From contig BOXE01000006.1 in the NCBI GenBank assembly GCA_019650635.1, positions 1,176 to 65,175 on the forward strand: DNA of 64,000 nucleotides, read 5' to 3'. This document shows positions 4,869 through 53,664 of this stretch, one piece after another. How positions within the stretch are numbered: position 1 is the first letter of the stretch; each line of letters begins with the position of its first letter. The notes under the pieces were generated by a model that saw only the letters and a list, made by a program, of their open reading frames with translations, searched no databases and had not been told where the DNA came from. The stretch is from Alphaproteobacteria bacterium (GTDB taxonomy: Bacteria; Pseudomonadota; Alphaproteobacteria; Methylaequorales; Methylaequoraceae). The translations under genes and the position numbers were made by a program.

Positions 4869-4882
4869 TTATAATTAATCTG

Positions 4883-5593: not shown

Positions 5594-5746
5594 AAAAAAT
5601 TATTTTCTTTAAGTTTTTGATACTTGTAATGACACTCATAAATTCTTTATATATTTATTCAAATTTTATTTTATACTTGTATTTATAAAGATTTTCTATA
5701 TTGATTTCATTGTATTTAAATGTAAACAATTATTTAAAGGAATATC

Positions 5747-6044: not shown

Positions 6045-6051
6045 AAATAAA

Positions 6052-7605: not shown

Positions 7606-7610
7606 AGATT

Positions 7611-8468: not shown

Positions 8469-8469
8469 A

Positions 8470-29243: not shown

Positions 29244-29962
29244 GGAATTTTCCATTAGACAAAGGTTTGCCAAGTTTAGATTATATAGTTAAAAATTGGC
29301 CTAGAACAAAATGTATTTTAAAAAAATATATTTTGTCAAATCATAAACAACCAGATTTATACTCGATAGCAATAATATGTTTAAAAGAGTTAAAAGTTTT
29401 TAAGTTAAAAGACTATAAATCGATTATTAGAAAATTATCAAAATTGTGTTTAAGAAATACTTGTTTCAATACATATCATGATTCTCATCACTTTAAGTCA
29501 GTTTTGGCAATTTCATGTATATTAGGAAAACAAATAAATTTAAAATATAAAGATAGGCTTTTATTGGTCATAATAGCCCTTACTCACGATATGAATCATC
29601 AGGGAAGGAGAATACTAATGAGTAAGCCCTACTATCAGGAATTAAAGAGTTATGATGGATTAGAAAAAATTTTATTTAAGAAAATCTTTATTTTTAAAGA
29701 ATTGAAGAGGATTAAGAGAATATTTGAGAGTACCTTTTTCCCTGTTAAACCAGAAAATGTAGAAGATGATCTTGAAAAAATAATTTTAGATGCTGATATC
29801 TTATCATCTTTAATGTTTGGTCCTCAGGTTGGAGTGAAACTCGCTGGCAGATTGAAACAAGAAATTAGGTATAATGATGATTCAGAATTACTTTTTTCAA
29901 ATTTTCTTAAACTTTTAGGGGGAAAATGTTTATATCTAGATTATTCAAAAAAATCATGTTAA
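29240..29962 (+). CDS. HD-superfamily protein resembling class I 3',5'-cyclic-nucleotide phosphodiesterase catalytic cores.
   Basis: The ATG at 29240 overlaps the cyclase stop (ATGA). The motifs are ...YHDSHHFKSVL..., then 37 residues later ...ALTHDMNHQG..., then ...IILDADILSS. Compare the PDE patterns YHN..HA.DV, HD..H.G and the metal Asp. Confidence 0.5.
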   Translation: MRNFPLDKGLPSLDYIVKNWPRTKCILKKYILSNHKQPDLYSIAIICLKELKVFKLKDYKSIIRKLSKLCLRNTCFNTYHDSHHFKSVLAISCILGKQINLKYKDRLLLVIIALTHDMNHQGRRILMSKPYYQELKSYDGLEKILFKKIFIFKELKRIKRIFESTFFPVKPENVEDDLEKIILDADILSSLMFGPQVGVKLAGRLKQEIRYNDDSELLFSNFLKLLGGKCLYLDYSKKSC

Positions 29963-30007
29963 TAATAAACTATTATGAAATGTTGTCGTTAAAAGTTATT
30001 CACAGTT

Positions 30008-31348
30008 ATGAAATTGTGGATAAGTAGTAATATGGGAAAATTTGTAATAGGGTGTTTTATTTTTTTGATTGGTGTTGGATCATTTGTATTCGCGCAAGAA
30101 GAAAAAGATGAGGTTATACCTTATAATCTAAAAGCCGCACTTAAGTCAGTTTTGAATAATCATAAAACTATATTGGCAACAAAAAGTGATATAGAGGCTG
30201 CTAAGTTAAGACTAAAACAATCCAGGGGTGGTTATTTTCCTTCGTTAGACGTTACAGCCAATTACGGACATGAAAATATTATAAAATATGGACCAGGCAA
30301 CAACACGCAATTGATGGCAAGGGACGCAACAGCAAAAATAACTCAAACAATTACAGATTTTGGTTTGACTAAATCAACAGTAGAAACTTCAAGATTATCA
30401 TTAAAACAAACACGAGCAACTGAGGCACAAATTAAAAATGACATTTTATTAAGAGCAATTTCAGCATACTTGAGAATTATTCAATCAAGGGAAAGTGTTC
30501 GATACGCAAGACAATCTGTTGCAAACATAAAAAAACAAACTGAATTGGAAGATGCAGCAGTAACTGCAGGAGGTGGACTTACTTCGGATGTTCTCCAAGC
30601 AAAAACTCAATTAGCTGGTGCTCAGGCACGTTTAATTCAGTTTGAAGGCGTATTAGCCACTTCTAGACATGAATTTGAATATGTTTTTAATTCATTTCCA
30701 GATAATTTAAATTCTTTGATCCTCCTTAAATCTGTTTTTGATAAATTACCTAAATCTTTAGAGGAGGCTGAAGAAATAACAATGAAAAATAATCCCTCAC
30801 TGATTGCAGCAAGAATCACAGAGGATATTGGTAAAGAGGCAATAAACACAGCTAAATCTTCTCTTTTTCCAACTGTTAAAGGGATAGTGAGTCATTCAGA
30901 AAAACAAGATTTTGGTGGTGTAGTAGGATTCAAAAGAGAAACCTCTGCAAAGTTAGATTTTGCATATCCATTAAATCTAAGTCTTTCGGAATACGCTGGT
31001 AAAGATGCAGCGGTTGAGTCTTATTTAGCAACATCTACAAGAATAAGAGATCAAGAAGATATGATTAAACAAATGTTAAGAACTACATGGGACGGATTAA
31101 AAACAGCTCAGCAAAATGCTCAATTTCTTACAAATCAGGCAAGAATCTCTGGTGAATTTTTAGAGCTTGCAAGACAAGAAAGACAGGCAGGAAACCGTAC
31201 TTTACTTGACGTTTTAGGGGGTGAAACTGCTCTAATTAATGCTCAAGCAGATGCGATTGCAGCACAAATTGAAGTTCTCATAAATAGTTACACTTTAATG
31301 AGTTTAATGGGGGGACTTTCAATTGAATCAATTGAATTTGTTGAATAA
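30008..31348 (+). CDS. TolC-family outer-membrane efflux/secretion protein (T1SS OMP, locus A).
   Basis: 446-aa ORF with a signal peptide (FIFLIGVGSFVFAQ) and two TolC-type repeat halves (…AAKLRLKQSRGGYFPSLDVTANYG…, …LINAQADAIAAQIEVLINSYTLMSLMG). Confidence 0.85.
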   Translation: MKLWISSNMGKFVIGCFIFLIGVGSFVFAQEEKDEVIPYNLKAALKSVLNNHKTILATKSDIEAAKLRLKQSRGGYFPSLDVTANYGHENIIKYGPGNNTQLMARDATAKITQTITDFGLTKSTVETSRLSLKQTRATEAQIKNDILLRAISAYLRIIQSRESVRYARQSVANIKKQTELEDAAVTAGGGLTSDVLQAKTQLAGAQARLIQFEGVLATSRHEFEYVFNSFPDNLNSLILLKSVFDKLPKSLEEAEEITMKNNPSLIAARITEDIGKEAINTAKSSLFPTVKGIVSHSEKQDFGGVVGFKRETSAKLDFAYPLNLSLSEYAGKDAAVESYLATSTRIRDQEDMIKQMLRTTWDGLKTAQQNAQFLTNQARISGEFLELARQERQAGNRTLLDVLGGETALINAQADAIAAQIEVLINSYTLMSLMGGLSIESIEFVE

Positions 31349-31404
31349 ATTAGGTCTTTTTAACTTTTAAAATAGTAGTATTTCGCCTATAGTTAAAACT
31401 GGAT

Positions 31405-41247: not shown

Positions 41248-42777
41248 TTATTTTTTTTGTTTAAATTGTATATATAGTCCCATTAGGAGTACAGCAAGAA
41301 TTGGACAAATACTTGCCATAGATAGAATACCAAAACCTTCAGTGGCGGATACAGCATTTCCTAGACCCAGACCCATAGCCAGAACAAGTGGTACGGTTAC
41401 CGGGCCGGTTGTGACTCCAGCGCTGTCCCAGGCGACATTAACAAATTCTTCAGTTGAAAAGTAAGTTAAAACAATTGCAAGAAGATAAAGTGGTATTAAA
41501 ACGGTTGCTAAGTCAAAAGCAAATACAATTTTTCCAACACCTAAGGCTATCCCAAATGCAACACCTCCAGCAACGCTATACATTAACATTGACTTTTTGA
41601 AAGCACCATTGGTAAGCTCTTGAACTGTCAAACCAAGAGCATTAAGTGCGGGCTCAGCAAGTGTTGCTCCAAATCCTAAGAGCCAAGCGAAAAGAATTAC
41701 TATAGTTAAACCCAATAATTCGTTATAAATTGGTGATACTTCACTTATTGGGACTTCCATAAAGGCAGCAGGAAGATTGGTTCCAGCTTGCCCACCTATA
41801 GCTCCTAAACCATATGTGAGTCCAATATTGAAGACACACATCCCAACAATGGACAAAGTTAACCCATAAGTTGTTATCATATTGTTAGGAAGTTTAGATC
41901 TAAGGATTACAAAAAGCACAATCATTAAAAATATCACAAGTGGAAGTATTGCTCGAACTCCTCCAATAATTTCAACAAACGGGGTTTGTGACCACTTAGA
42001 AACCTCTCCTATGGTCATATCTGAAGCCATACTAGTCGAAGCAATTATTTCCTCAACTGAGATTGTCTGAGAAACATGTATAGCAAGAATCAGAACAGCG
42101 ATAATTGGAAATAATGAAGCCATTGTAACGACGCCGAAACCAGAAAGAGATGAATCTCCTTTACCAGCTGATGCTGCAATTCCAATACCTAGTGATAGCA
42201 CAAGAGGTACAGTAACTGGTCCAGTTGTAACAGCACCACAATCCCAAGCTAATCCAAGAATAGTTCTTAAATCAGGATTACTCCATACATATGCAGTAAG
42301 AATTATTGTTGGTGCAAGAGCTGCATAAATCATAGGTTTTAGAGACCAACCTTTGACAAACCTTATTGTTCCAATGATGGCTGCTAGTCCAACACCAGCA
42401 CCGACCATTACAACTAAGGTTTCACTTCTATTGTTTAGTATCTCATAAAGATACGGTGCGTCCTGAGGATTTATTGACGAACCAAATGCTTTGAGTGCTC
42501 CAATAGCTGGTTCCGCATAAGTTACCCCCACCCCAAGTATTCCAATAATAATTAAAACAAGAACCATTGGTGCTTTTTTTGGTAATGTATCACCAATTAC
42601 ATTGCCAAATGGCATTAAACCGGTTTTAAGACCTTCCATAAAAATTGCCAGGCCTATTATTACTGCAATCAATCCTAGACAAATTGTTGTTGCTGAAGAG
42701 ATTGGTTGTCTTAAAATTAAAAGTTGAAATAGAAATAAATATGCTGCAAGTGGAACAACAGCTTTAATTTGTTCCAT
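41248..42777 (-). CDS. DUF1538 family polytopic membrane protein (internally duplicated).
   Basis: 509-aa ORF whose two halves each carry ...AWD(C/S)(G/A)(A/G)VTTGPVTVPLVL(S/A)(L/M)G(I/L)G. Confidence 0.7.
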   Translation of the reverse strand: MEQIKAVVPLAAYLFLFQLLILRQPISSATTICLGLIAVIIGLAIFMEGLKTGLMPFGNVIGDTLPKKAPMVLVLIIIGILGVGVTYAEPAIGALKAFGSSINPQDAPYLYEILNNRSETLVVMVGAGVGLAAIIGTIRFVKGWSLKPMIYAALAPTIILTAYVWSNPDLRTILGLAWDCGAVTTGPVTVPLVLSLGIGIAASAGKGDSSLSGFGVVTMASLFPIIAVLILAIHVSQTISVEEIIASTSMASDMTIGEVSKWSQTPFVEIIGGVRAILPLVIFLMIVLFVILRSKLPNNMITTYGLTLSIVGMCVFNIGLTYGLGAIGGQAGTNLPAAFMEVPISEVSPIYNELLGLTIVILFAWLLGFGATLAEPALNALGLTVQELTNGAFKKSMLMYSVAGGVAFGIALGVGKIVFAFDLATVLIPLYLLAIVLTYFSTEEFVNVAWDSAGVTTGPVTVPLVLAMGLGLGNAVSATEGFGILSMASICPILAVLLMGLYIQFKQKK

Positions 42778-42984
42778 AACTCTAGAAATTGTGTATGGGC
42801 TAAAGAGTAAGTGCCTTGGCAGGAGATACTTTAATTTTTTGAGGCTTTAGTGATTTTCCTTTAGTTGCCTTCGGAGTGAGAAGATTATAACTTAAAGATT
42901 TATGATTAATCTCTGATTCGTGAATATAATCTGAATATTTCATAATTTATCATAACATATTGTAGAAATTAATAAAATCTTTAT

Positions 42985-43444
42985 TCAACATGACTTGTTG
43001 ACTTCTCTAATCTGTAAAGAATCATGTTTTGTTATTTTTTTAATTATTTGATTCTCCGACTCTATAACCTCATCTATTTCATCATGAGAATAAAGTACAT
43101 TTTGAAACTCATTTCTTTTAGCAAGTTCTTTACATAAATTTAAAATTACTTTTGGGCGCTTTGAACCAGAATTAATTAGCTCATCAAGATTTTCTTTACT
43201 TATAGATATCAACTCTGTGGATTGACTTGAGTAATGTTGCGCTTCTGTTTTGTTGTAAAATTAAAGCCATTTCACCAAAAACCTCTCCATCTCTCATAGA
43301 TCCAACTTTTTTTCCATCAACTACTACATCAAGCGCTCCAGAAACTATCATGTAAGCTTTATCGCCCTTGTCGCCTTGATTAAAAAGCGTCTCGCCCTCT
43401 AACATCAAAACTTTTGTTGTTTTTCCGTGATTAATTTCTTTCAA
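42985..43444 (-). CDS. Stand-alone cyclic-nucleotide-binding (CAP/PKA-type) protein, with one frameshift near 43,212.
   Basis: It reads ...GDKAYMIVSGALDVVVDGKKVGSMRDGEVFGEMALILQQNRSAT (phosphate-binding cassette) and then a roughly 70-aa helical tail (42985-43212 ORF). Confidence 0.75.
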
Positions 43445-43881
43445 GAAAATATCCTTTGAGATAATCTATAGTGAATCTGAAGCGCTAAAGCTCTTATTAC
43501 GTTGGGAGAGTCGTGAGTTAGTTTTACAAGATCGGCTTTAGTAATTGGAAGTTTTTGGTTGTCGGATTTTCCTAATTCCTTTGACATTTCATTAATTACT
43601 TTATGAAGATCTATGTTAGAGGATAATAAAATAGCTTCCAAAGCCTTTCTTTTTATTTCCACAATTTCACTTGGTACAATTGCTTTTATACTTGCAGTTC
43701 TGTTTTCATTTAGGATTAAAGACAATTCTCCAAAGATTTCACCTGTTTCAATTTTTCCAATTTTTTTTCCTTCAATTTCTGCAACTAGTCCACCTGAAAT
43801 AACTAAAAAGGCTGTTTCACCTTTTTCACCCTCTCGAACAATATATTGATCTGGAAGAACTCTTATCTTTTTTAAACCCAT
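43441..43881 (-). CDS. Stand-alone cyclic-nucleotide-binding protein.
   Basis: 146-aa ORF reading ...REGEKGETAFLVISGGLVAEIEGKKIGKIETGEIFGELSLILNENRTASIKA. Its stop overlaps the next start. Confidence 0.8.
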   Translation of the reverse strand: MGLKKIRVLPDQYIVREGEKGETAFLVISGGLVAEIEGKKIGKIETGEIFGELSLILNENRTASIKAIVPSEIVEIKRKALEAILLSSNIDLHKVINEMSKELGKSDNQKLPITKADLVKLTHDSPNVIRALALQIHYRLSQRIFS

Positions 43882-43895
43882 TTAAACCTAATATT

Positions 43896-46266
43896 TTATT
43901 TAGAAGTTGCCACAAAAACACCATCCCAATCTTTTGGGGGAGGATACTTTTTATATTCATTAATTCGTTCCGTCATCATTTCATAGTAATCTTTCATTAA
44001 ATTTTTACAAAGTGTTTTTGCCTGAGTCATTTCCTCGATAGCATCTTTCCAATTTTGATTAAAATAGTGATTTAATACATTTTTGTGTTTTTTTTCAAGA
44101 TTTTTGAAATCAACACTATTTTTAAAACTTGGATCACCGAGCAAACAAAAAATTGATACAGCTTCTTTTTTTCCTTTTACTGCTAGCATATCAAGTTGAA
44201 GCGTAGCAAAAGTATCTTTAACAGCATCGTTTGTTTCTTGTCCAATAACTGTTTTAACTCCATAACCTTTTGATTGACCTTCAAGACGTGATGCTAAATT
44301 GACTGCGTCTCCAAGTACTGAATAGTCAAATCTTTGGTCTGATCCCATGTTTCCAACAACACAACCTCCAGTATTTAGTCCAATTCCAATTTTTAATTCC
44401 AAAAAATCTTTATTTTCTGACTTCGCTTCTTGCTCTCTGATATCGTTAAGTTCTTTCAGTGCTTTATGCATACTTAATGCTGCTTCACAAGAAACTTGCT
44501 CATGTTTATCAACATCTATAGGTGCATTCCAAAAAGCCATAATACAATCTCCCATATATTTATCGATTGTTCCGTTTTTATTTATGATTTCATTAGTAAG
44601 AGGAGTTAAAAATCTGTTTATAAGTTTTGTTAGGCCTTGAGGATCTGATTTAAAAGCTTCTGAAATTGTTGTAAATCCTCTTACATCACAAAAAAGAAAT
44701 GTCATTTTTTTTGTTTCTCCACCCAAAACTAATTTATCAGGATCTTCAGCTAATTGCTCTACTAAAGCAGGGGATAGATATTGAGAAAATGCACCTCTTA
44801 TTTGTTTTTTCTCATTGGCATCTCGTAAGTAGTTTGCAAAGGTGTTACTAAAATAAATTACAAAAGTTGTTACACCTGCAAAGGTTGGATCAAATAAAGT
44901 TTTATGCTCAGTAAATAACCTTACACTAATATAAAATGCAGAACTTATTATGGTTACAAGTAATGAAATATTTACAATTGGACCAAACCTTAATGCAGAC
45001 ACTGTGATAAATAATGCAAGCAAAATTGTAAAGAGTGCTTCATAAAATTTCATATTTGCACCAGATTTCAAAAAAGGTGATCCTGAAATTTTAACTTTGT
45101 TTTTTTCAATTATTGCTTCTTCTTCACTTAAACCTTTTTTTAATGCATCTTTATAAACTTTTTCAGAATTTTTTGTAGATGTATAATAAAGAATTGCTGA
45201 AATGACTGTATCAATGAGATTTGCATGAATTTCAACACCTGGCATTCTTTCATCGACTGGAGTGGGTCTAATATCCTTTAATCCAGTGGCCGATGTGCCT
45301 AATATACCAAGTTTTCCCTGTAATCTATCTTTGCCAACCCTTCCTTTAATTATATCCACTGCACTTACATAATACCTTGATTTACCTTCTTAACTTTTCC
45401 AGCATCTGAATCACCATAATAAATCCACACTCTACCATTCTCATCAGTGGAATGCAGCATTTCCAATAGCTTTAGTTTGAATTATTATTTCTTAATTCCC
45501 GTCAAACCTGTCCTAGTGGCAATACTATTTCTTGAAACGCAACCCTTATCATATCAAGCCCAAGAGTTGGTCTGATTTCACCTGCAACATTTGATATTAA
45601 AGGTACTCTTCTAATAATACCATCTGGTTCCTGTGCAACTGAAACTGTACCAGACCCAGAAGCAGCTTTTTCAAACTCTGTCACATTAGCAAGCAATCCA
45701 GGATAAGATATCAACCATTCCTTTGGATTTTTACCTTTGCCAACAAAAACTTTTACAGATGAATCGTTTATATCATTTCTGTTTGCATCACCTTCAACAT
45801 CCAAGCCAGAGTGCCCAATTACTACAGGAAAGTCATTCATAGCTTCCGTGGCTAAAAACTCATTAGAAGGAAGTTCACTTAATAGCTTGGCAATTTTTGG
45901 GTTTCTTTTTTCTAAATCTTGAGAAATTAAATCAGGTGAAGTTCTGTCTTTTTCTGCAAAGAGAACATCTAGACCTAAAACCAGCATGCCTGACTCTTTA
46001 GATTTTTTAAAAAGATCGGCAAGTACAGTTCTTGGCCATGGCCATTGACCGATTTCTCTGAGAGATTTTTCGTCAATATCTACTATTACGGAATAAGTTT
46101 GCCCATCTGTAGACCTTGGGAATTTTTTTTGAAGAACATCAAAATATTTTAGTCTTAGAACTTCTACTATTTCAGGATCAGCTATACGAATCAAACCAAA
46201 AAGAATAGCCATTACTAATGAAGCAATAGTAACAATAAGTCTAAAACTTAGCTTTAATTTTATCAT
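43896..46266 (-). CDS. CHASE2-domain membrane adenylate cyclase (class III). The frame is broken in 45,360-45,500 as assembled.
   Basis: 45502-46266 holds the N-terminal TM segment and CHASE2-like periplasmic domain (…VIVDIDEKSLREIGQWPWPR…). Across the gap it reads ...TDENGRVWIYY.... 43896-45359 contains …LGILGTSATGLKDIRPTPVDERMPGVEIHANLIDT…, TM segments, and the cyclase motifs FLFCDVRGFTTISE, IDKYMGDCIMAFW and FDYSVLGDAVNLASRLEG. Confidence 0.8.
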
Positions 46267-47987
46267 GGTTCTGCAAAACTATTACCAAGAGTTCTTATAA
46301 GTGGGTAAATAAAATACGTAATTAATCTTCTTTGCCCAACTCTAAACTTTCCTGAAACTTTCATTCCTGGCATTAAATTAAATCCTGGAGGAATATCTTT
46401 TAACTCATTTTCTGTTATTTGAGCCCTAGCCCTATAAAAATTTCCAGGTTTTCCATCGACATCTTTATCAATTGTGTCAGCAGAAACATAAATAAGCTTT
46501 CCTTTTAATTCACCATGTTTTTGTGCTGGAAGGGCATTAAGTTGAATTTTAACAGATGTATCCGGAATTAGTTTGCTAATATCAGAAGGATCAACATCAA
46601 AAACAGTTAATAACTCCACACCTGTTGGTACCAATGTAACAACACTTTTACCTTGTGTTATAACTGCTCCAGGATATAGAGAATGAAGGTCTAGAATCAT
46701 TCCGTCAGACGGCGCTCTTACCACGACATCAGTTTGTTGTCTTTCAAGTTTTTTAACATCCTCTTGTAGAGACATTCTTTGATCCTCTAATCCAACAAGC
46801 TCATCGTTTATTCCTCCAAAAAATTGGCTGTTATATTCTTTTCTATTAGATTTTAATTCGCTTAGTTTATTGCTAGTTTTTGTAAATTCTTTTTCTAAAG
46901 ACAACCTTTTGTTTTTTTCAGCTAAAACTTGTGACTCTGCTACAAGATCAAGTTCAAATAACTCCAACTTTGAATCTTCCAGCTGCTTTTGTATATCAAG
47001 TTGTTCTTTGATAAACTTTAAATCGTCTTCTGTGGAACCTATTTGCTGATCTAATGAAGCAATCTTTGCTAAATATTGGTCTTTTTTATCTTTAAAGATT
47101 CGGCTCTGTCTTTCGTCATTTGGATTTGCAACCGAGACACTATTCCTTAACAATGACTGCTTTTTTAGTCTATCAATTTTTGAATTTACAACTGAAAGCT
47201 GATAATCAAGTTTCATTTTATCAGCTCTTTGAAGTGTAGCATCGAAAGTTACGAGTGGGTCTCCTTGATTAACACTCTCACCTTTTTTTACAAGTATTTC
47301 TTTGACAACAGAATTATAGTTTGATTGCACCTCTACATTTGGGACAACGGTGGTAATCTTTCCAGAAGCAGAAATTGTAGTATCAATTTCGGAAATAGTG
47401 CCCCAAGTAATTAAAAATAAAACTAGGAAACCAAATGAATAAACTGACATTTTTACTGAACGTGGTACCTGCTTTGTTTTAATTCTATCAATGTCGTCAT
47501 CAAATTCATCTAATAACTCACTCATCATTTTTTTCTTTGATCTATTTTCTTTTTCCTCCTCAGTTAAAACTTCTTCTTGATCTTTGTTATTTTCATTTTC
47601 ATTTCCAGATTCAAAAGCATCCACAGATAATTTTTCGTTTGCATTTCTGGCATAGCTTGCAAGCTGCTGCATCATATTAAAAGCTGTTTGTGGAGAGTTT
47701 TTGAGATAACCTAATAAAGCATTTTGATCAATTTCTTTTACCGTTGTCTCAACTGTTGCTCTTGCCATTGCACTTCTTGGTTGTTTGTCAATTAATGCCA
47801 TTTCTCCAAATAACGCCCCTTTTTCAAGTATTGATAAAGTGACGTATTCGTCACCGTTGAATTTGCATACCTCTATTTTTCCTTTTACTATTTGATAGGC
47901 ATAGTCACCAACTTCACCTTCTCTAAAGAGTACATCACCAGCAGCTAAATTTCTTACAGCGGGTTGAATATTTTTTTTTTCGGCCAT
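46263..47987 (-). CDS. HlyD-family T1SS membrane fusion protein fused to an N-terminal cyclic-nucleotide-binding domain, locus B.
   Basis: 574-aa intact ORF. Residues ~10-115 read ...GDVLFREGEVGDYAYQIVKGKIEVCKF...LEKGALFGEMALIDKQPRSAMARA. A TM segment (VYSFGFLVLFLITWGTI), a lipoyl/barrel and coiled-coil region, and ...MPGMKVSGKFRVGQRRLITYFIYP follow. Confidence 0.85.
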   Translation of the reverse strand: MAEKKNIQPAVRNLAAGDVLFREGEVGDYAYQIVKGKIEVCKFNGDEYVTLSILEKGALFGEMALIDKQPRSAMARATVETTVKEIDQNALLGYLKNSPQTAFNMMQQLASYARNANEKLSVDAFESGNENENNKDQEEVLTEEEKENRSKKKMMSELLDEFDDDIDRIKTKQVPRSVKMSVYSFGFLVLFLITWGTISEIDTTISASGKITTVVPNVEVQSNYNSVVKEILVKKGESVNQGDPLVTFDATLQRADKMKLDYQLSVVNSKIDRLKKQSLLRNSVSVANPNDERQSRIFKDKKDQYLAKIASLDQQIGSTEDDLKFIKEQLDIQKQLEDSKLELFELDLVAESQVLAEKNKRLSLEKEFTKTSNKLSELKSNRKEYNSQFFGGINDELVGLEDQRMSLQEDVKKLERQQTDVVVRAPSDGMILDLHSLYPGAVITQGKSVVTLVPTGVELLTVFDVDPSDISKLIPDTSVKIQLNALPAQKHGELKGKLIYVSADTIDKDVDGKPGNFYRARAQITENELKDIPPGFNLMPGMKVSGKFRVGQRRLITYFIYPLIRTLGNSFAEP

Positions 47988-47993
47988 TTTTTG

Positions 47994-50165
47994 TTACCCG
48001 GCCTTCTTTAAAGATTTAATTTTGTTTTCAACACCTAAAATAGACATTTGCTTATTATACGTTTGACCAAAATAGCCTGAAATTTGTCTTAATTCTTCAA
48101 AAGAACCTTGTTGAGATATTTTTCCTTTTTCAAGCACAAAGATTTTATTACATAGTCGAAGGTGCCAAACTCTGTTTGACACTATAATTATTGTTCTACC
48201 AAGAGCAATATCTGATAGTGCATCGTATAATTTTATTTCACTGTCAACGTCAAAACCTGTGAAAGCATCATCAAGTATCATAATACGAGGGTTTCTAATA
48301 AGTGCTCTAGCAATTGCTAGTTTTTGTCTTAAGCCAGTTGCAAGATTTGTAGCATTTTCTTCTAAGAATGTTTCATATCCATCAGGATAGGACTCAATTT
48401 CTTCATGTGCGAAAACTTTTTTGGCAGCCCAAGTTATTCTGTCCATAGAGGAATTTGGCATTGCACTAGCTATTGTTTCCCTTATTGTTCCAGGAAAAAA
48501 ATAACTATCCGTTCCAACTAATGAAACTTGTGATCTTACATGACTCAGGTCCAATAAACGTAGATCTATATTATCAAGAGCTACGATTCCAGCTTGCGGT
48601 CTATATAAACCTTGAATTAGTTTTGCAATGGTACTTTTCCCACAGCCACTTTTACCAGTAATACCAATTATCTGTCTTGGATTAATTTCAATATCAATAT
48701 CATTTAATACTTTTGTGTTGTCGTCGTACCCAAACTCAACATTTTTAAAACTAACCTGTCCCATTAATTGAGGTTTTTGGCCTCTGACAGTTGTTTCGGA
48801 GTTTGCATCCACTATTCCTGATATGATCTGAAGGGATTGAACTAATTTTGTTATTTCTGTTTTTAGCGTAACTAGATCAATTATTGGCTTTGAAACTCTG
48901 CCGGCAAGCATATTAAAACCTACTAAAATTCCAGCTGAAAGAGATCCAGAAAATACAAGATGCACCCCGACAAAAATAACCATTGCAGTCATAAGTTGAT
49001 TTATAGTTGATGAAATGTTGTTTAAAACTGCTGACTTTTTTTGCATTTCTTCATTTGCAATAATATAATTTGCTTCCAAATCTCTCCACTGATCTTTCAA
49101 ATTAGGTTCAAGAGCAAGTCCCTTTACATTCTCAATTCCGTTTACAGCAACAGAAATAAATTCTTGTCGTTTTGATTCAGCCTTACTTAAACCAGCGAGA
49201 GAATCTCTTTGTTTTTTTGAGTAAAACATTGATGCTAAAGCTCCTAAAATACTGAATGAAAACACAACAATAAATAGTAATGGACTATAAAAAAATAGAA
49301 TCGGAACAAAAACAAGTAAACTAATTGAGTCTAGTGCTGTTGAGAAAACTTTTTGAGTCAGAAGGCTTTTGATCTGAGATATTTGTCCCGTGAATCTCAA
49401 AAAGGTAGCTGATTCTTTATGAAACCTTTGCATTGGTAAAGCAATTAATTTTTCAAAAACTTTAACTGAAAGTTTGGCTTCAACTTTTTGTGAGAAAAAA
49501 TCAAGAAGATATGATTTTAAATACCCAAGTATTCCATTAAATACATACGCAACAACTACACCTGAAGTTATAACATATAAAGTTGAATAAGCTTCATAGT
49601 TTACAACCTTATCCAAAACCAACATCATGAAAACAGCTGGTATGACTGCAAAAATATTTAAAATTAAAGCTACGATTACAACCTGAACCATAACAGATTT
49701 GTTCCTAAATGACTCACCAATTAACCATCCAATTTTTAATTCGCTGTCTTCTTCAAATTTTTTAAGCTTGGCTTTCAAAAGAATAACTTCTCCATCCCAT
49801 CCTTTTTTTAATTCTTTTAAATTTATTTGTTGGGGTTTGGGACTGGTAACACCAGTATCAAGGCATAAAACTGACTTGTCATCGTCTTTTTCACCTTGAA
49901 TGACTCTTAAAGCTATTATGTACCTTCCATTTTTAAGCCTTAAAATTTGTTGTTTTTTTGATAAGAGCTTTATTAGTTCCTTTTCGCTGATTTTGGTTGC
50001 TTTTGCTTTTAAATCAAAGGATTGAGCTAAGTCACACATTTCAGAGGTTCTAAGCTCTCTATCTTCAATTTGAAATCTTTCTGGGATATCATTCGGACCA
50101 ATATGAACACCTAGTTGTCTTGCAACTAGAATAATTGATTTTTGAGAACCGCGCATCGCTTCCAT
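47994..50165 (-). CDS. T1SS ABC exporter of HlyB type with an N-terminal C39-like (non-catalytic) domain, locus B. The NBD catalytic motifs are non-canonical.
   Basis: 723-aa intact ORF. The N-terminal ~130 aa align to the HlyB CLD pattern, without the Cys of the C39 'CG..C' motif. Walker A is GKSGCGKST. The Q-loop position reads LVGTDSY, the signature LATGL, Walker B IMILDDA and the H-loop IIVSNRV. Confidence 0.85.
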   Translation of the reverse strand: MEAMRGSQKSIILVARQLGVHIGPNDIPERFQIEDRELRTSEMCDLAQSFDLKAKATKISEKELIKLLSKKQQILRLKNGRYIIALRVIQGEKDDDKSVLCLDTGVTSPKPQQINLKELKKGWDGEVILLKAKLKKFEEDSELKIGWLIGESFRNKSVMVQVVIVALILNIFAVIPAVFMMLVLDKVVNYEAYSTLYVITSGVVVAYVFNGILGYLKSYLLDFFSQKVEAKLSVKVFEKLIALPMQRFHKESATFLRFTGQISQIKSLLTQKVFSTALDSISLLVFVPILFFYSPLLFIVVFSFSILGALASMFYSKKQRDSLAGLSKAESKRQEFISVAVNGIENVKGLALEPNLKDQWRDLEANYIIANEEMQKKSAVLNNISSTINQLMTAMVIFVGVHLVFSGSLSAGILVGFNMLAGRVSKPIIDLVTLKTEITKLVQSLQIISGIVDANSETTVRGQKPQLMGQVSFKNVEFGYDDNTKVLNDIDIEINPRQIIGITGKSGCGKSTIAKLIQGLYRPQAGIVALDNIDLRLLDLSHVRSQVSLVGTDSYFFPGTIRETIASAMPNSSMDRITWAAKKVFAHEEIESYPDGYETFLEENATNLATGLRQKLAIARALIRNPRIMILDDAFTGFDVDSEIKLYDALSDIALGRTIIIVSNRVWHLRLCNKIFVLEKGKISQQGSFEELRQISGYFGQTYNKQMSILGVENKIKSLKKAG

Positions 50166-50197
50166 GAGAATATAATATATTAATTTTTGATTTAATC

Positions 50198-50235
50198 AAA
50201 AAAAAAACCCCCTTAGAAACTCTAAGAGGGTTTTT
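50198..50235 (-). terminator. Rho-independent terminator, bidirectional in shape and strongest on the minus strand.
   Basis: The minus-strand RNA is CCCUCUUAGA-GUU-UCUAAGGGGG followed by about 10 U. It lies about 20 nt after the stop of the 50256-51360 gene and upstream of the ABC gene. Confidence 0.75.
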
Positions 50236-50255
50236 AATTTATAAAAGTATAGGCT

Positions 50256-51360
50256 TTAGACTACCTCACCACCGTCATTTGGATCGTCTGGAGGTGGAGG
50301 CATATCTGCGGGCATATCACCTGGCATTGGCCCAGGATCTCCTGGAGGAGGTCCTTCTGGACCTTGATGTGCTCCTGCATCATCCATGTGTGATTCATGT
50401 CAGCCTATCTCCAGGAGGAGGTTTTCTCCGGAGGAGGCCCCCTTCACCAGCACCAAAACCGTGGATCGTTAGGATCGTGTTGTGGCATATCACCTGGAGG
50501 AGGTCCGCCAGCGGCCCACCTTCAAAATAAGGGGTCCCCTTCACCACCAGGAGGTGGCGGAGGCATTCCGTCTCCATCCATATCCATGCCTGGAGGCGGT
50601 CCGTCTGGTCCCATGCTGGTCCCTGGTCCACCCCCATATCACCTGGAGGCGGTCCGTCTGGTCCCATACCACCTGGTCCCATGTCACCCGGAGGCGGTCC
50701 GTCTGGTCCCATTCCACCTGGCCCCATATCACCTGGAGGCGGTCCGTCTGGTCCCATACCACCTGGTCCCATGTCACCTGGAGGCGGTCCGTCTGGTCCC
50801 ATAGCACCTGGCCCCATGTCACCTGGAGGCGGTCCGTCTGGTCCCATTCCACCTGGCCCCATATCACCTGGAGGCGGTCCGTCTGGTCCTTGCCCAGCCA
50901 TATCACCTGGAGGAGGTCCGCCTTCACCTGGAGGCGGTCCTTCTGGTCCTGGCCCTGCCATATCACCTGGAGCCCCTGGTAAATCACCCGGAGGCGGAGG
51001 TGGGGGTGCATCAGCACCTGGTCCCATGTCTGGAACAGGAGGCATATCTGGACCAAAATCAGAGCATGGTCCGTCAGGACATCCATCTAAATGAGTATCC
51101 ATAACCTCAGAAACAGCGTCAAAAGCGTCTGCTGCACTTGCACCAGGGTTTTCAGCCATAAAATCGTTGTATGCACCTTGAGCGGTGTCAGCCATGTTCA
51201 TCATAACTTCCGGCGGCATTCCACCATCAGTCATAACGTCCATTGCTGCAGTCATACATTCGTCAAAACTACCTCCACCCTGCATCACGTCAAATGCAGC
51301 TGAACCTGCGGCATCACCGAGATCCATTAGTTCAGGAGGCAGGTTAGTAAATTCTGCCAT
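50256..51360 (-). CDS. Met/Asp/Pro/Gly-rich repeat protein with no FecR or RTX domain. The C-terminal third is frame-broken as assembled.
   Basis: The ORF 50395-51360 has a Met-rich N-terminus (MAEFTNLPPELMDLGD...DECMTAAMDVMTDGGMPPEVMMNMADTAQ) and then at least 6 copies of GPDGPPPGDMGPGGM. After the frame changes, the sequence continues ...GPDGPPPGMDMDGDGMPPPPPGGEGDP... and ends ...PPPPDDPNDGGEVV* with a stop at 50256-50258. Confidence 0.65.
50590..50890 (-). repeat. Tandem 45-nt coding repeat of about 6-7 units, with two alternating variants that give a roughly 90-nt super-period.
   Basis: The plus-strand unit is ggaggcggtccgtctggtcccat(a/t)(c/g)cacctgg(t/c)cccat(g/a)tcacct, repeated head to tail. 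Confidence 0.85.
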
Positions 51361-51477
51361 AATAAATTCCTTTATTAAATTGTAAGATTAAATTGTGTTA
51401 ATACTTTTAAAAAGTCGATACAGTCTAATTTTAAGCTTATTTTATTTTTAAATTTTAATCAAGCTTTAAATTAATTT

Positions 51478-52803
51478 TTATTTTTCAATTGTTTCAAAAT
51501 TTAGAATTCCGCATAATTTTAATAATTCGAAGGATGAAATAATTAGTTGATATTGTGCGTTTACTAAATTTGATTCAGAATCTGTTAGTTCTTTTTGCGC
51601 ATCTAGAATTTCTAATGTTGTTCTGGTACCAACACTTGCTTCTTTTGTTACTCCCTCAACTGCCATTAAATTTGACTCAACTGAAACCTCAAGAGAATTT
51701 ATACTTGATTTTGAACTTTGTATTTTCTTCCATGCCGAATTAATTTGAAATTGTAAGTCAAGTTTTTTGTCTCAATTGATTTAATAACAGTAAGAGCAGA
51801 ATCTTTTGATTTTTCTAAATTCAAAAAATTATGTCCTTTGTTAAATAATGGAACTGTAACATTGGCAGTTACTGAGTATGAATCTGTTCTTTCAACTGTT
51901 CTTGAGGAGTCAAGTGATTTTCCTACTGAACCAGACAAAGAAAATTCCGGTGCAAAGTTTAAATTATTTTTTCTTACATCCAATTTTGAGTTCATAAGTT
52001 GTAATTTTAATTTTCTATAATCTGGGTTCTTTTCTAAACCTGTTTTTATTGAATCTTCCAGAGATTTTGGAAGTTTTGGTATTTGACCAAATTTTAACCA
52101 ATCTTTTGGATTGGCGTCGACAATTTGCGCATTATTAGAATCAAACCATTTAATATCTGGAGCTCTACCAACAATTGTTTTAAAATCAGAAATTGAAATT
52201 TCTAAGTTATTTTCAGCTTCTATTCTCTTTGAAGTAGCACCTGCTAATCTTGCTTTAGCTTGAAAAACGTCAGTTTTAGTTACGTCTTTAAATTCGAATC
52301 GTTTTTCAGCAGCATTTAGTTTTTTTTCAAGAGTATCTTCGTTCCTTTTTGAAACATCTAAAAGAAAATAATCCTTTAAAACAGTATAATAAGCTCTACT
52401 AGCTTTAAATAAAACATCTTGGACTGTGGCGTAAAAGGTTAACTTTGCGATGTTCAAGTTATTTTTAGCTTGCTTAAAAATTTATAGCTTTTGTGTAACC
52501 TAAAGGTTGAGATAAATCTACGTCGAAAGTGGTTGGGTTGAAAGCGCTATCATTAATTCGAGATGTATCAGGATTGCTTTTTGAAATTTTCCTTCCTTGT
52601 GAAGCTGAAAAGTCAAGGGATGGTAGAAAATCTGTTTTGGAAATTTTTAAATCTTTTTCTGAAATTTTTAATTCTGTTTTACTTTTTTCAATGTCCGGAT
52701 AAAACTTATATGCATCTTTCAAAACATCGGAGAGTTCTTCAGAAATTGAAATAATAGGAAAAAATATCGATGCTAAGATAACCAGATTTAATTTGGATTT
52801 CAC
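51478..52803 (-). CDS. TolC-family outer-membrane protein, locus B. Two frame breaks are present as assembled.
   Basis: The fragments 52474-52803 (signal peptide MKSKLNLVILASIFFPIISIS, ...FLPSLDFSASQG), 51699-52457 and 51478-51666 (…ILDAQKELTDSESNLVNAQYQLIISSFELLKLCG) are collinear with TolC. Confidence 0.8.
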
Positions 52804-52931: not shown

Positions 52932-53008
<77 letters not shown>

Positions 53009-53016
53009 TTAAGTTT

Positions 53017-53664
53017 TTGGAAAGCATTGATATTGACCTTTATGGGAGAAAGTTATGTTTAAAAACTATTTTGTTGCAATTTTTATTATCAGTAATTGGA
53101 TTTTCTGCTTCAGCAAACGACTATTTTAAAGCTCTAGAGCTTTTTAATAAAAAAATGATAGAACAATCTATCATTCACTTTAAGAAAGTAGCTGAAGACG
53201 AGAATCATGAAAAAAGAAGTGATGCAATGTTTAATATTGCTCTTATCTATGATAATGGTTTTGGAATTCAAACTGATAAAACTAGAGCACTATATTACTA
53301 TGAATCTGCTTCAGAACTTTCAAACAAGTATGCTTTATTTAATTTAGGTTGGATGTATTATAATGGAGAAAACGTAAATAAAGACGTTTTCAAAGCATAT
53401 GAATTATATAAAATGGCGTCAGATTTTGGTCATCCAAGAGCAATGTATAATTTAGCTAATATGCATTTTACTGGAACAGGTACTGTTAAAGATTTAAAGA
53501 TGGCTTATAAATTATTTTTAAAATCAAAGATGCATGGAATCCAAGAAAGTGAATATTTTATTGAACAAATTGCAATTTCTTTAAAACCTGAGGAGTTAAA
53601 TCTGCTTAATAGAGAGTTTGAATCATTGATAGAAAAAAAAATTGTTTTACCGCCTATAAATTAA
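53017..53664 (+). CDS. Sel1-repeat (TPR-like) secreted protein. The real start is probably the ATG near 53,054, with a frame slip in the signal peptide.
   Basis: It has four or five Sel1-type repeats (…AMFNIALIYDNGFGIQTDKTRALYYYESASE.., ..ALFNLGWMYYNGENVNKDVFKAYELYKMASDFGHPRAMYNLANMHFTGTGTVKDLKMAYKLF). Confidence 0.75.
   Translation: MESIDIDLYGRKLCLKTILLQFLLSVIGFSASANDYFKALELFNKKMIEQSIIHFKKVAEDENHEKRSDAMFNIALIYDNGFGIQTDKTRALYYYESASELSNKYALFNLGWMYYNGENVNKDVFKAYELYKMASDFGHPRAMYNLANMHFTGTGTVKDLKMAYKLFLKSKMHGIQESEYFIEQIAISLKPEELNLLNREFESLIEKKIVLPPIN

Follow-up and report, generated by a model that had tools for sequence, protein, structure and literature searches.

A T1SS locus with a cyclic-nucleotide-binding domain fused to its HlyD-type adaptor and a neighbouring CHASE2 cyclase: a candidate cAMP-gated exporter of marine alphaproteobacteria

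Related secretion and signalling systems

The E. coli haemolysin T1SS (HlyB-HlyD-TolC; PDB 7SGR/8DCK) is among the closest known counterparts of locus B, the T1SS locus analysed here in a window of 64,000 nucleotides (the whole stretch of alphaproteobacterial DNA examined). The ABC proteins align over their full length, a TolC gene is present in locus B, and the periplasmic part and juxtamembrane region of the adaptor (MFP) align with HlyD. In both loci a cargo gene, at locus B a candidate, precedes the transporter genes, from which a terminator separates it. The cytoplasmic domain of HlyD is reported to have a charged motif that makes contact with HlyB and that is required for recruiting TolC (bioRxiv 10.1101/2025.05.27.656419). 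In locus B, however, the short cytoplasmic N-terminus of HlyD is replaced by a cyclic-nucleotide-binding (CNB) domain of about 125 aa and a disordered, charged linker of about 50 aa. Unlike the haemolysin locus, locus B has a candidate cargo without RTX repeats and no HlyC acyltransferase gene, and it carries genes for a cyclase and for stand-alone CNB proteins in the same strand block.

HetC of Nostoc PCC 7120 also has a CNB domain on the cytoplasmic side of a T1SS-related exporter (PMC10986499). This N-terminal domain bound ppGpp (Kd 59 uM), GTP and GDP in vitro but not cAMP or 2-OG, and it was required in vivo (PMC10986499). HetC is the only studied case of a CNB domain on a related exporter, and we count this against a cAMP reading of locus B. 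In HetC the CNB domain, with ppGpp as its measured ligand, is on the ABC protein, the peptidase is active and no MFP gene lies nearby, whereas in locus B the MFP carries the CNB domain, the catalytic Cys is missing from the C39-like domain, and a putative adenylate cyclase is co-encoded. A HetC-type CNB-PCAT was ruled out, as the ABC protein here has no CNB domain. In cyanobacterial NHLP/Nif11 bacteriocin export, CNB proteins of family TIGR03896 (cyc_nuc_ocin) are likewise tied genomically to an operon with ABC and HlyD-type genes. The CNB proteins of locus B, in contrast, are single-domain (TIGR03896 has two CNB domains), no active peptidase is present, and the lineage is alphaproteobacterial. 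Matches to TIGR03896 (27.5-35 bits vs 161), TIGR03794 (54 vs 156) and TIGR03796 (329 vs 853) are sub-threshold. An NHLP/Nif11 export system was rejected on the basis of scores far below the TIGR03794/03796/03797/03896 cut-offs, the absent catalytic Cys, and small precursor genes, of which none were seen.

Control of a T1SS by a nucleotide second messenger is known from LapD/LapG, where c-di-GMP controls the T1SS adhesin LapA through an inner-membrane receptor and a periplasmic protease that releases the channel-stalled adhesin. Locus B would resemble this system in that the messenger influences, after translation, what becomes of a T1SS substrate. In LapD/LapG, however, the messenger is c-di-GMP, the receptor is separate, and the messenger does not bind the T1SS adaptor. 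Ehrlichia tandem-repeat proteins are acidic, lack canonical RTX repeats and carry a C-terminal signal. One report (PMC3417381) describes these alphaproteobacterial proteins as T1SS substrates related to the RTX exoprotein family. The candidate cargo of locus B, here called PGDM, has no sequence similarity to them. Its source is free-living marine bacteria, it has many Pro, Gly, Asp and Met residues and hardly any Lys or Arg, and its secretion is putative.

In the alphaproteobacterium Sinorhizobium meliloti, the CHASE2 receptor cyclases CyaD1, CyaD2 and CyaK make cAMP upon an external cue, and downstream genes of the Clr regulon include those for extracytoplasmic FecR-domain and TPR proteins (PMC5498481). 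FecR-domain (RTX) and Sel1/TPR-like proteins neighbour locus B too. The S. meliloti output is transcriptional, via the CRP-like Clr, whereas locus B encodes no CRP-type regulator and its receptor domain is part of the secretion machine.

Components of the exporter and the associated cyclase

The ABC gene (47994..50165, minus strand) is intact and encodes a HlyB-type T1SS exporter of 723 aa with Pfam matches to ABC_membrane, ABC_tran and Peptidase_C39. The protein aligns with residues 16-691 of E. coli HlyB (E = 6e-100) over its full length, including the C39-like domain. Its best NCBIfam match is TIGR01846 (488 bits, under the 725.55-bit cut-off). The Peptidase_C39 match at the N-terminus is 26 bits, and this region aligns with the C39-like domain (CLD) of HlyB. 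In an alignment with a partly provisional HlyB N-terminal sequence, no Cys was found at the position of HlyB Tyr9/Gly10, either in this protein or in 21 other ABC proteins associated with CNB-MFPs. The exporter thus belongs to the CLD subgroup, in which the C39-like domain lacks the catalytic Cys. The gene of the outer-membrane channel (TolC_B; 51478..52803, minus strand) would encode a TolC-family protein of about 441 aa if intact, with a signal peptide; Pfam OEP was matched on its fragments, and an intact 441-aa orthologue from a relative (L012) scored 213 bits against TIGR01844, just below the cut-off of 225.15. An ABC exporter, a CLD, an HlyD adaptor and a TolC channel are all present, as in T1SS of the HlyB/HlyD/TolC type. 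Several of the NCBIfam matches (HlyB, TolC) fall under the curated cut-offs, and we count this against the explanation favoured below.

The MFP gene (46263..47987, minus strand), also intact, encodes a HlyD-family protein of 574 aa with an N-terminal cytoplasmic CNB domain (Pfam cNMP_binding at residues 12-97, E = 1e-19) and HlyD_3. It scored 219.7 bits against TIGR01843, over the cut-off of 208.65. In the AF2 model (pLDDT 85.6), the CNB barrel (residues 11-86, pLDDT about 90) is followed by helices (88-126), a disordered linker (120-165), a TM helix (176-198) and the HlyD periplasmic part with its lipoyl, hairpin and barrel domains. Foldseek/PDB matches of the adaptor part were HlyD (8dck/7sgr), EmrA and MacA, and those of the CNB domain were PKG, CRP and Bd1971. 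The best PDB matches of the CNB domain include PKG, PKA regulatory subunits, SthK and CRP-family regulators, the first three of which are described as cGMP-/cAMP-dependent or cyclic-nucleotide-gated. Across 36 fusion proteins (23-82% identity), four residues of the phosphate-binding cassette (G61, E62, R71 and A73) show no or almost no variation. Within the MFP, conservation is highest in the CNB domain (82-97% aa identity vs 74-94% for the periplasmic part), and its dN/dS of about 0.01-0.06, with dS saturated, indicates strong purifying selection. With its canonical cassette, the domain appears competent and constrained, and it is predicted to bind a cyclic nucleotide. The fusion of this domain to the MFP makes the predicted coupling of the T1SS to cyclic nucleotides a physical one.

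The next gene (43896..46266, minus strand) encodes a CHASE2 sensor/class III adenylate cyclase of 789-791 aa if intact. CHASE2 and Guanylate_cyc were matched on two fragments in the window and again on the intact L012 orthologue (CHASE2, E = 2.5e-46). The closest solved structure to the catalytic domain is P. aeruginosa CyaB (3r5g, E = 1e-33). Alignment to CyaB 3r5g, Cya2 2w01 and CyaC 1wc1 located the motifs FCDVRGF, IDKYMGDC, FDYSVLG and AVNLASR, and the set of catalytic residues (two metal Asp, Asn and Arg) is complete. The Lys of IDKYMGD stands where 2w01 reads IDEFMGD; we take Cya2 to be a guanylate cyclase, though the PDB entry is titled adenylate cyclase. A Ser (FDYSVLG) occupies the class IIIb Thr position. 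Judged from these residues, the cyclase looks catalytically competent and adenylate-specific.

Two genes for stand-alone CNB proteins follow on the same strand. The first (43441..43881, minus strand) is intact and encodes 146 aa (cNMP_binding, E = 5e-15) with the cassette GEIFGELSLIL..NR.AS and a highly conserved C-terminal stretch of 60 aa. The second (42985..43444, minus strand) is frameshifted and would encode 155 aa if intact; cNMP_binding was matched on an 82-aa fragment (E = 4e-13), and the intact orthologues of 154-158 aa keep the cassette GEVFGE[ML]AL..Q.RSAT. Both proteins retain the G-E...R-[ST/K]-A cassette. The second gene is missing in the most divergent subgroup, where L024-L028, and apparently L032, have a single small CNB gene.

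Gene order, conservation and frameshifts

The original prediction had placed all genes of locus B on one strand with very tight junctions, and the ORF list and annotation agree: every gene lies on the minus strand. Only 6 nt (TAA-CAAAAA-ATG) lie between the ABC gene (47994-50165) and the MFP gene (46263-47987), and the MFP stop overlaps the cyclase start in ATGA at 46266-46263. The cyclase stop (43896) is followed after 14 nt by the first cNMP gene (43881); the stop of this gene and the TTG start of the second cNMP gene share positions 43444-43441. The domains that had been read from the letters were recovered by Pfam along the block as OEP; ABC_membrane, ABC_tran and a weak Peptidase_C39; cNMP_binding with HlyD_3; CHASE2 with Guanylate_cyc; and cNMP_binding twice. 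As predicted, a single strong intrinsic terminator was found on the minus strand of the block (50203..50235). This Rho-independent terminator or attenuator, with a 15-bp stem followed by a T-run, marks the boundary between the candidate cargo gene and the transporter genes. It is present in 20 of the 20 relatives examined, where the stem sequences differ and the pairing is kept.

The association of these genes had been proposed not to be due to chance, which is borne out by the same order in every related locus with enough flank. In all 40 of the related marine loci that extend past the adaptor, the order is TolC, repeat protein, terminator, ABC, CNB-HlyD, CHASE2 cyclase, one or two CNB proteins, DUF1538 and PII-like protein. 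In each of these loci, down to 64-75% MFP identity, the cyclase gene comes immediately after the CNB-MFP gene and overlaps or abuts it. A lack of conserved linkage, which the original prediction had named as grounds for rejecting it, is thus clearly contradicted. The relatives are uncultured low-GC marine alphaproteobacteria, labelled by their submitters as Pelagibacteraceae, Rickettsiales or Alphaproteobacteria. The conserved linkage, the fusion of the CNB domain to the MFP and the seemingly competent cyclase residues support the proposal that the window contains a second T1SS locus tied to cyclic nucleotides.

CNB-HlyD fusions with HlyB-type ABC proteins form at least 35 divergent clusters (50% identity) in several phyla, and we found no published description of this pairing. 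The CNB-MFP gene lies nearly always directly downstream of a gene for a HlyB-type ABC protein of 710-760 aa without the catalytic Cys. In the distant loci a neighbouring cyclase is the exception; one second lineage (L080) has a CHASE2 cyclase beside the ABC and CNB-MFP pair. Since a nearby cyclase is the exception there, the general feature is the CNB-MFP fusion, whereas an adjacent cyclase is confined to this clade and a single further lineage. The cyclase may thus be just one input among several, or other receptors may be its targets. We count the scarcity of nearby cyclases in distant loci against cAMP gating.

The original prediction had overlooked that four genes of locus B (TolC, repeat, cyclase and second CNB) are frameshifted; these four of the eight genes have no intact ORF in the window. 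The TolC gene is in three frame pieces (52803-52474, 52481-51699 and 51771-51478) with frameshifts near 52476 and 51768, and the repeat gene loses its frame near 50630-50390, inside the repeats. The cyclase gene is split into 46266-45502 and 45359-43896 by five single-base deletions at 45531-45389 (143 bp) relative to all relatives, and the second cNMP gene into 43444-43196 and 43212-42985 by indels at 43235-43024. A further frame change, near 42800-42850, affects the adjoining DUF1538 gene. Five frameshifted genes in one block might be taken for a pseudogene cluster decaying in this particular genome, which we consider very improbable. The breaks are tightly clustered indels of 1-2 nt, found in none of the relatives, in sequence otherwise 89-97% identical to close relatives with intact genes, and the ABC, MFP and first CNB genes are unbroken. 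Moreover, SecD/F, YajC and UvrA are shredded at 4868-11633 of the same window, SecDF and UvrA far worse than locus B, and contigs named '..._pilon' (L039-L041) show like fragmentation in other genes on other contigs. Because essential genes (SecDF, UvrA) are shredded alike, we conclude that the frameshifts are sequencing or assembly errors and that the operon is intact in nature.

Candidate cargo, ligand and proposed gating

The gene between TolC and the terminator (50256..51360, minus strand) encodes PGDM, an orphan acidic Pro/Gly/Asp/Met repeat protein with no Pfam or NCBIfam match and no signal peptide. In every relative whose sequence can be read here, an orthologue of 252-405 aa occupies the same position. 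Common to the orthologues are an N-terminal domain of about 95 aa, the motifs GPDPLFGE and MHTHMDDAGAH, and the C-terminus PPPPxDDPxDD[VI]V; they contain 0-1 Lys and no Arg, with a net charge of -50 to -79. The repeat period is about 15 residues in the window copy; repeat length and sequence vary among orthologues. PGDM was rejected as an RTX protein, with no HemolysinCabind match and GGxGxD in only 4 of 17 orthologues.

We favour, with moderate confidence, the explanation that locus B is a cAMP-gated T1SS, for which we infer the gating, the ligand and the cargo. The periplasmic CHASE2 domain would sense an external cue, upon which the cyclase would make cAMP. cAMP would then bind six CNB domains hanging beneath the ABC-adaptor complex, at a site that would correspond to the region of E. 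coli HlyD contacting HlyB and needed for substrate-triggered TolC recruitment. Binding would switch cargo engagement or export on or off. The small CNB proteins could be further cAMP-dependent adaptors or buffers, and the cAMP signal may extend to the DUF1538/PII-like transporter encoded downstream. The cargo is probably the adjacent PGDM polyanion, the export of which would use its C-terminal acidic-then-hydrophobic signal. Given a receptor fused to the pump and a cAMP maker of its own, the locus suggests that a second messenger would directly switch secretion.

Whether PGDM is the cargo bears on this scheme. CLD-type HlyB transporters are known to recognise and export RTX substrates, a point against our explanation, and PGDM has no RTX repeats, while two FecR+RTX genes lie 10-20 kb away. 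T1SS-B might instead export an RTX protein from elsewhere, such as the FecR-RTX of locus A, and PGDM might have a cytoplasmic, chaperone-like or periplasmic role. Locus A, however, has its own ABC, MFP and TolC genes, and the repeat gene is in the classic cargo position, with a conserved terminator ahead of the ABC gene. The missing signal peptide, the extreme acidity and the conserved acidic-hydrophobic C-terminus also fit a secreted substrate, and the tandem-repeat proteins of Ehrlichia, which are T1SS substrates (PMC3417381), offer a precedent. A different cargo is thus unlikely, though a serious alternative. The ligand could also differ. If the CNB domains bound something other than cAMP or cGMP, for example ppGpp, the exporter would be tuned to starvation and not to the neighbouring cyclase, as the HetC domain, which bound ppGpp and not cAMP (PMC10986499), and the many distant CNB-MFP loci without a nearby cyclase would suggest. 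We regard this as rather improbable, since cyclic-nucleotide binders typically have the Gly-Glu...Arg-Ser/Thr-Ala cassette, which hardly varies here, and since in this clade translational coupling links the gene of the putative adenylate cyclase to that of the MFP.

The genes downstream offer another target for the signal. The DUF1538 gene (41248..42943, minus strand; Pfam DUF1538), about 41 nt after the second CNB gene, encodes a membrane protein resembling an UmpA/UmpB-like cation/proton antiporter fusion, with NCBIfam UmpA/UmpB matches below cut-off and a frameshifted N-terminus. It is followed by genes for a PII-like protein of 118 aa (40875..41231, minus strand; Pfam P-II, 31 bits) and a small soluble protein of 99 aa (40573..40872, minus strand), an ORF without a family match in Pfam or NCBIfam; DUF1538 is syntenic in all relatives, and the other two genes are syntenic as well. 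The cyclase and the two small CNB proteins might mainly regulate the DUF1538 transporter and its PII-like partner, with the adjacency of the T1SS reflecting operon packing in a streamlined genome. In every relative the three downstream genes come next on this strand, about 40 nt further on, DUF1538 and PII pairs also occur beside unrelated ABC and CNB-MFP pairs (L059, L062 and L063), and cAMP is among the adenine nucleotides that PII-like proteins such as SbtB bind. However, the MFP gene overlaps the cyclase start with its stop codon, and the MFP has a conserved CNB domain of its own, by which the T1SS would be a cyclic-nucleotide receptor wherever the signal is made. We give this reading a small probability as the main role; it is compatible with cAMP-gated secretion. 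That the soluble CNB proteins could really target the PII-like or DUF1538 proteins of the same strand block is counted against the cAMP-gated explanation.

At its downstream end the strand block closes with the 99-aa gene, which abuts the convergent T1SS locus A. A weak sigma-70-like promoter candidate for the ABC operon (TTGATT-16-TATTAT; 50172..50199, minus strand) came from a consensus scan only, in which promoter-like sites showed no enrichment over shuffles; the region is conserved in close relatives. At the other end, a gene for a Sel1-repeat protein with a signal peptide (53017..53664, plus strand; Sel1 Pfam match on the L012 orthologue) is divergent from TolC_B, with tRNA-Pro (52932-53008) between them, and its position is conserved.

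Gene order and reading frames of locus B

Locus B occupies 52803-40573 on the minus strand of the window, with the TolC-family gene first and the gene of a 99-aa protein last. Between the TolC-family gene and the gene of a 723-aa ABC exporter lie a GC-rich repeat gene (51360-50256) and a strong intrinsic terminator. The ABC gene is followed by the gene of a 574-aa adaptor (MFP) of the HlyD type, which carries a cyclic-nucleotide-binding (CNB) domain at its N-terminus, and by those of a CHASE2/class III cyclase and two small single-domain CNB proteins; the last three genes encode a membrane protein of the DUF1538 family, a PII-like protein and the 99-aa protein. As far as the second CNB gene, this order is the one claimed in the original prediction, and the junctions described there were also recovered. 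The ABC and MFP genes are separated by 6 nt, the MFP stop overlaps the cyclase start in an ATGA at 46266-46263, the first CNB gene follows the cyclase after 14 nt, the stop of this gene overlaps the start of the second CNB gene by 4 nt, and the sole strong minus-strand terminator in the block lies at 50235-50203. An Rfam scan of the window gave three tRNAs and nothing else.

What had gone unreported is that four of these genes are broken and that the DUF1538 N-terminus is frame-shifted. In the window, the TolC gene is in three frame pieces, the cyclase gene and the second CNB gene are in two pieces each, and the repeat gene loses its frame in the last third. When the region was aligned to ten close relatives (87-97% DNA identity), the breaks appeared as tight clusters of 1-2 nt indels present in the window only, such as five single-base deletions at 45531-45389. 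Further frameshifts lie at 52476 and 51768 in the TolC gene, at 50630-50390 in the repeat gene and at 43235-43024 in the second CNB gene. At 4868-11633, the window contains no ORF of 100 aa or longer, and YajC, SecD/SecF and UvrA are recognisable as fragments (ORFs below 90 aa) broken by many frameshifts, which shows that the window comes from an error-rich assembly. Contigs of the same clade named '_pilon', which suggests polished long-read assemblies, are similarly fragmented, with the affected genes differing from contig to contig. A gene-by-gene check of better-assembled relatives found every gene whole, with 441 aa for TolC, 252-405 aa for the repeat protein, 789-791 aa for the cyclase, 146 and 155 aa for the two CNB proteins and 566-570 aa for DUF1538. 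Since the indels are confined to the window, YajC, SecD/SecF and UvrA are shredded alike and the genes of the relatives are whole, we conclude from these comparisons that the frameshifts are sequence or assembly errors and not gene decay. An alternative genetic code was also considered for the split genes and rejected, because the frame itself changes, by 1-2 nt indels relative to all relatives, and in-frame stops are not the cause. The practical lesson is that apparent pseudogenes in the window should be read as assembly errors.

The CNB-bearing adaptor and the adjacent cyclase

The ABC exporter aligned with E. coli HlyB over its full length, including the N-terminal C39-like domain (E = 6e-100). 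The Cys at the catalytic position is absent from it and from 21 other ABC partners of CNB-bearing MFPs. The exporter therefore falls in the HlyB 'CLD' subgroup, and the locus belongs to the CLD-type T1SSs. The MFP scored above the NCBIfam cut-off for HlyD T1SS adaptors. Its AlphaFold model (pLDDT 85.6) consists of a CNB beta-barrel (residues 11-86), helices (88-126), a disordered charged linker (120-165) and one TM helix (176-198), followed by periplasmic lipoyl, hairpin and barrel domains. Because of this topology, the model places the CNB domain in the cytoplasm, in place of the small N-terminal cytosolic domain of HlyD. In HlyD, that small domain contains a charged motif which touches HlyB and without which TolC is not recruited (bioRxiv 10.1101/2025.05.27.656419). 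A Foldseek search with the MFP model matched periplasmic adaptors and nothing further.

The locus contains genuine CNB domains by family assignment. Among 36 fusion proteins of 23-82% identity, the phosphate-binding cassette FGEMALIDxxPRSAxA varies little or not at all; both small CNB proteins also keep a phosphate-binding cassette. No part of the MFP is better conserved within the clade than the CNB region (82-97% identity; dN/dS of about 0.01-0.06, a rough value given saturated dS). The C-terminal 60 aa of the 146-aa CNB protein are also highly conserved and could form a docking surface.

The catalytic domain of the cyclase (residues about 500-790) has P. aeruginosa CyaB as its nearest match (3r5g, E = 1e-33), and the protein was assigned to the class III adenylate cyclases. 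Both metal aspartates and the Asn/Arg pair are present in the alignment. The cyclase has a Lys in IDKYMGD where 2w01 (Cya2) has IDEFMGD, and a Ser at the class IIIb Thr position. We take 2w01 to be a guanylate cyclase; its PDB entry is titled adenylate cyclase. The Lys, the Ser and the metal Asp, Asn and Arg residues together predict cAMP as the product.

The original prediction held that the coupling of this T1SS to cyclic nucleotides was more than chance, a view that turned in part on finding the linkage in other genomes. The linkage was found there, and the coupling is supported: in 40/40 loci that reach past the MFP, down to 64-75% MFP identity, the cyclase gene lies directly 3' of the MFP gene. 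Close homologues of the window MFP number in the hundreds in marine metagenomes, and single-cell genomes and MAGs under the labels uncultured Alphaproteobacteria, Rickettsiales or Pelagibacteraceae encode such an MFP too. Wherever the flanks suffice, the whole block is kept, from a divergent Sel1 gene through TolC, repeat protein, ABC, CNB-MFP, cyclase, two CNB genes, DUF1538, PII-like and 99-aa genes to a convergent second T1SS. In the most divergent subgroup (L024-L028 among the numbered loci compared with the window), and it seems in L032 as well, a single small CNB gene (144-146 aa) takes the place of two. The 155-aa CNB paralogue is the fastest-evolving gene of the block (48-66% identity where the MFPs of relatives have 81-92%). 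Sensor cyclase, pump-borne receptor, soluble receptors and candidate cargo thus form one conserved block in this clade. The genomes of the clade are small and AT-rich and likely have few regulators, and retention of the circuit in them implies a function worth its cost.

An exhaustive profile search for full-length CNB-HlyD fusions gave at least 35 clusters at 50% identity, with 24-39% identity to the window MFP. Named members, all annotated generically as HlyD adaptors, include proteins of the cultured Magnetospira sp. QH-2 and of MAGs labelled Rhodospirillales, Magnetococcales, Deltaproteobacteria, Planctomycetota and Latescibacterota. A metagenome scan with the alignment of one 9-sequence subfamily as query gave 80 loci, nearly all from marine samples. 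In almost all of these with enough upstream sequence, a 710-760-aa HlyB-type ABC lies directly upstream of the fusion, and the other neighbours are heterogeneous. A CHASE2 cyclase was found near the fusion in only one other lineage (L080), accompanied by a FecR-domain protein and a possible outer-membrane protein (a weak, sub-threshold SlipAM match); a CHASE2-only fragment stands at the edge of L077. Judged by these neighbourhoods, what is general is the ABC + CNB-MFP pair, and the grouping of cyclase, extra receptors and likely cargo in one block is the special feature of the window clade. Full-text literature searches found no description of a CNB-HlyD fusion, of a CNB-bearing or cAMP-gated T1SS adaptor, or of the window-clade locus in SAR11-type genomes.

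The candidate cargo

In every relative with readable sequence, an orthologue of the repeat protein is encoded between the TolC and ABC genes. It has a conserved N-terminal region of about 95 aa, PPPGDMGPG-type repeats in variable copy number, the conserved motifs GPDPLFGE and MHTHMDDAGAH, and a C-terminus of the form PPPPxDDPxDD[VI]V. A signal peptide is absent. The composition is 17-29% Pro, 13-24% Gly, 10-16% Asp and 9-13% Met, and none of the 17 orthologues has an Arg or more than one Lys (net charge -50 to -79). The scarcity of basic residues and a Met content of about 10% make the protein unusual in itself; if secreted, it would escape tryptic proteomics. The His/Met motif MHTHMDDAGAH presumably resembles copper-binding sites.

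No family match was found in Pfam or NCBIfam, and a search of 5.8 billion proteins gave only four short metagenome fragments as homologues of the N-terminal domain. By these searches the protein looks like an orphan. An RTX or collagen-like nature was rejected, as there is no Pfam match, GGxGxD is unconserved and Gly does not occupy every third residue; the protein does not qualify as RTX cargo. A double-glycine leader was likewise rejected, because the N-terminus departs from the consensus and the peptidase Cys is missing from the ABC. Full-length copies are almost missing from the protein database, and the Tara short-read contigs L001-L004 start within the repeat gene or immediately behind it; the gene seems to be a breakpoint for short-read assemblies.

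A terminator follows the repeat gene in 20/20 relatives examined, with differing stem sequences and preserved pairing. Such a placement is well known where a cargo transcript is abundant and the transporter genes are reached by read-through. The repeat protein is the likeliest candidate for the cargo of the locus B T1SS, with about even odds.

A putative regulatory motif (C/T)TTGATTAAA shared upstream of the cargo and ABC genes was rejected, with 31 matches against 24 +/- 5.5 expected, which is chance level. In the stretch 50200-50165, a palindrome, TTGATTAAATCAA, lies just after the terminator T-run, overlaps a -35-like hexamer and is kept in close relatives; words related to it upstream of the cargo gene were not above chance.

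A proposed cyclic-nucleotide switch on secretion and its rivals

Control of T1SSs is usually described at the level of transcription or substrate presence. With a receptor for a second messenger in the adaptor itself, a one-step secretion machine would be switched directly, at the post-translational level. Given the architecture, the modelled topology, the conservation of residues for ligand binding and catalysis, and the observed translational coupling and synteny, we infer, with slightly better than even confidence, a chain from cue to secretion. The CHASE2 domain would sense a periplasmic cue and the cyclase would make cAMP, which would bind the CNB domains beneath the ABC-MFP complex and alter how the substrate is engaged or TolC recruited. 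The small CNB proteins might serve as additional adaptors or buffers, and the signal may extend to the DUF1538/PII transporter.

Three main rivals compete with this chain. The CNB domains may bind a ligand other than a cyclic nucleotide, as the CNB domain of HetC bound ppGpp and not cAMP (PMC10986499); here the receptor gene adjoins a predicted adenylate cyclase. The cAMP module may instead mainly serve the DUF1538/PII pair, whose genes stand in the same block, while the cyclase start itself overlaps the MFP stop. Finally, the cargo may be a different protein. CLD-type transporters, to our knowledge, handle RTX substrates, and this counts against the repeat protein. Tandem-repeat proteins of Ehrlichia are reportedly acidic and without canonical RTX repeats. 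They are T1SS substrates (PMC3417381), which we take as a precedent for the repeat protein as cargo.

The closest known machine is HlyB-HlyD-TolC. HetC is a regulatory precedent and a distinct system, since its CNB domain is on the ABC whereas here it is on the MFP. Another precedent is set by the NHLP bacteriocin exporters of cyanobacteria and their two-CNB accessory protein, TIGR03896; the locus does not belong to this group and gave sub-threshold matches only. The cascade of the S. meliloti CHASE2 cyclase and Clr is also a precedent, and FecR-domain and TPR proteins are among its targets (PMC5498481). The fusion family is widespread, has yet to be characterised and lends itself to direct testing, each functional step being inferred; it spans several phyla, and its presence in at least one strain in culture (Magnetospira sp. 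QH-2) brings it within reach of the bench.

Locus A (27305-40571, plus strand) is convergent with locus B and only 1 nt away from it, which puts two cyclases and two T1SSs within 26 kb. It comprises a frameshift-truncated GAF-PAS-class III cyclase (27305-28756), a second, intact TolC (30008-31348), two FecR-domain + RTX proteins (31405 to about 34640; 35029-37654), a split ABC of the 529-aa type without CLD (37707-39295) and a plain HlyD of 423 aa (39300-40571). In published work, periplasmic proteins with a FecR domain have been linked to CHASE2 sensors as their partners (PMC5192318), and FecR and TPR proteins to signalling by CHASE2 cyclases and cAMP as its targets (PMC5498481). The CHASE2 domain might read the FecR-RTX proteins of locus A, which are candidate inputs. 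A much bolder reading, which we regard as improbable, is a self-contained sense-and-secrete reflex of a widespread group of streamlined ocean bacteria: the periplasmic CHASE2 domain, maybe reading FecR-RTX proteins that the neighbouring T1SS exports, would raise cAMP, which would open the exporter directly and allosterically through the adaptor CNB ring and release bursts of the MHTHMDD polyanion as an extracellular Cu/Ca ligand or oxidant sink. If so, the repeat protein would be a candidate protein source of the strong metal-binding ligands of seawater, and trypsin-based metaproteomics would miss it for want of tryptic cleavage sites.

Several neighbourhoods of ABC + CNB-MFP pairs in other loci are worth recording. 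In Magnetospira sp. QH-2 (L126, 19142-21710), a large protein with metallo-beta-lactamase/Apyc1-like (cyclic-nucleotide phosphodiesterase-like), CNB and hemerythrin domains lies about 8 kb from the pair, which is found around 3.38 Mb in FO538765.1. In GCA_002340345.1 (L044, 5651-11503), a HlyC-type acyltransferase upstream suggests an acylated toxin-type cargo. A Magnetococcales MAG (L127, 7731-14224) combines a C39-domain ABC and CNB-MFP with a 743-aa OEP protein. DUF1538 adjoins pairs of a different subfamily in L059 (1866-4306, with the PII-like gene confirmed beside it), L062 (829-2577) and L063, a possible sign that this transporter and cNMP-sensing T1SSs are functionally connected. FecR-domain and Sel1/TPR-like proteins recur in separate lineages beside ABC + CNB-MFP pairs and CHASE2 cyclases (L080, 2-5235; L045/L111, 1778-3473; the window, 31405-37654 and 53017-53664).
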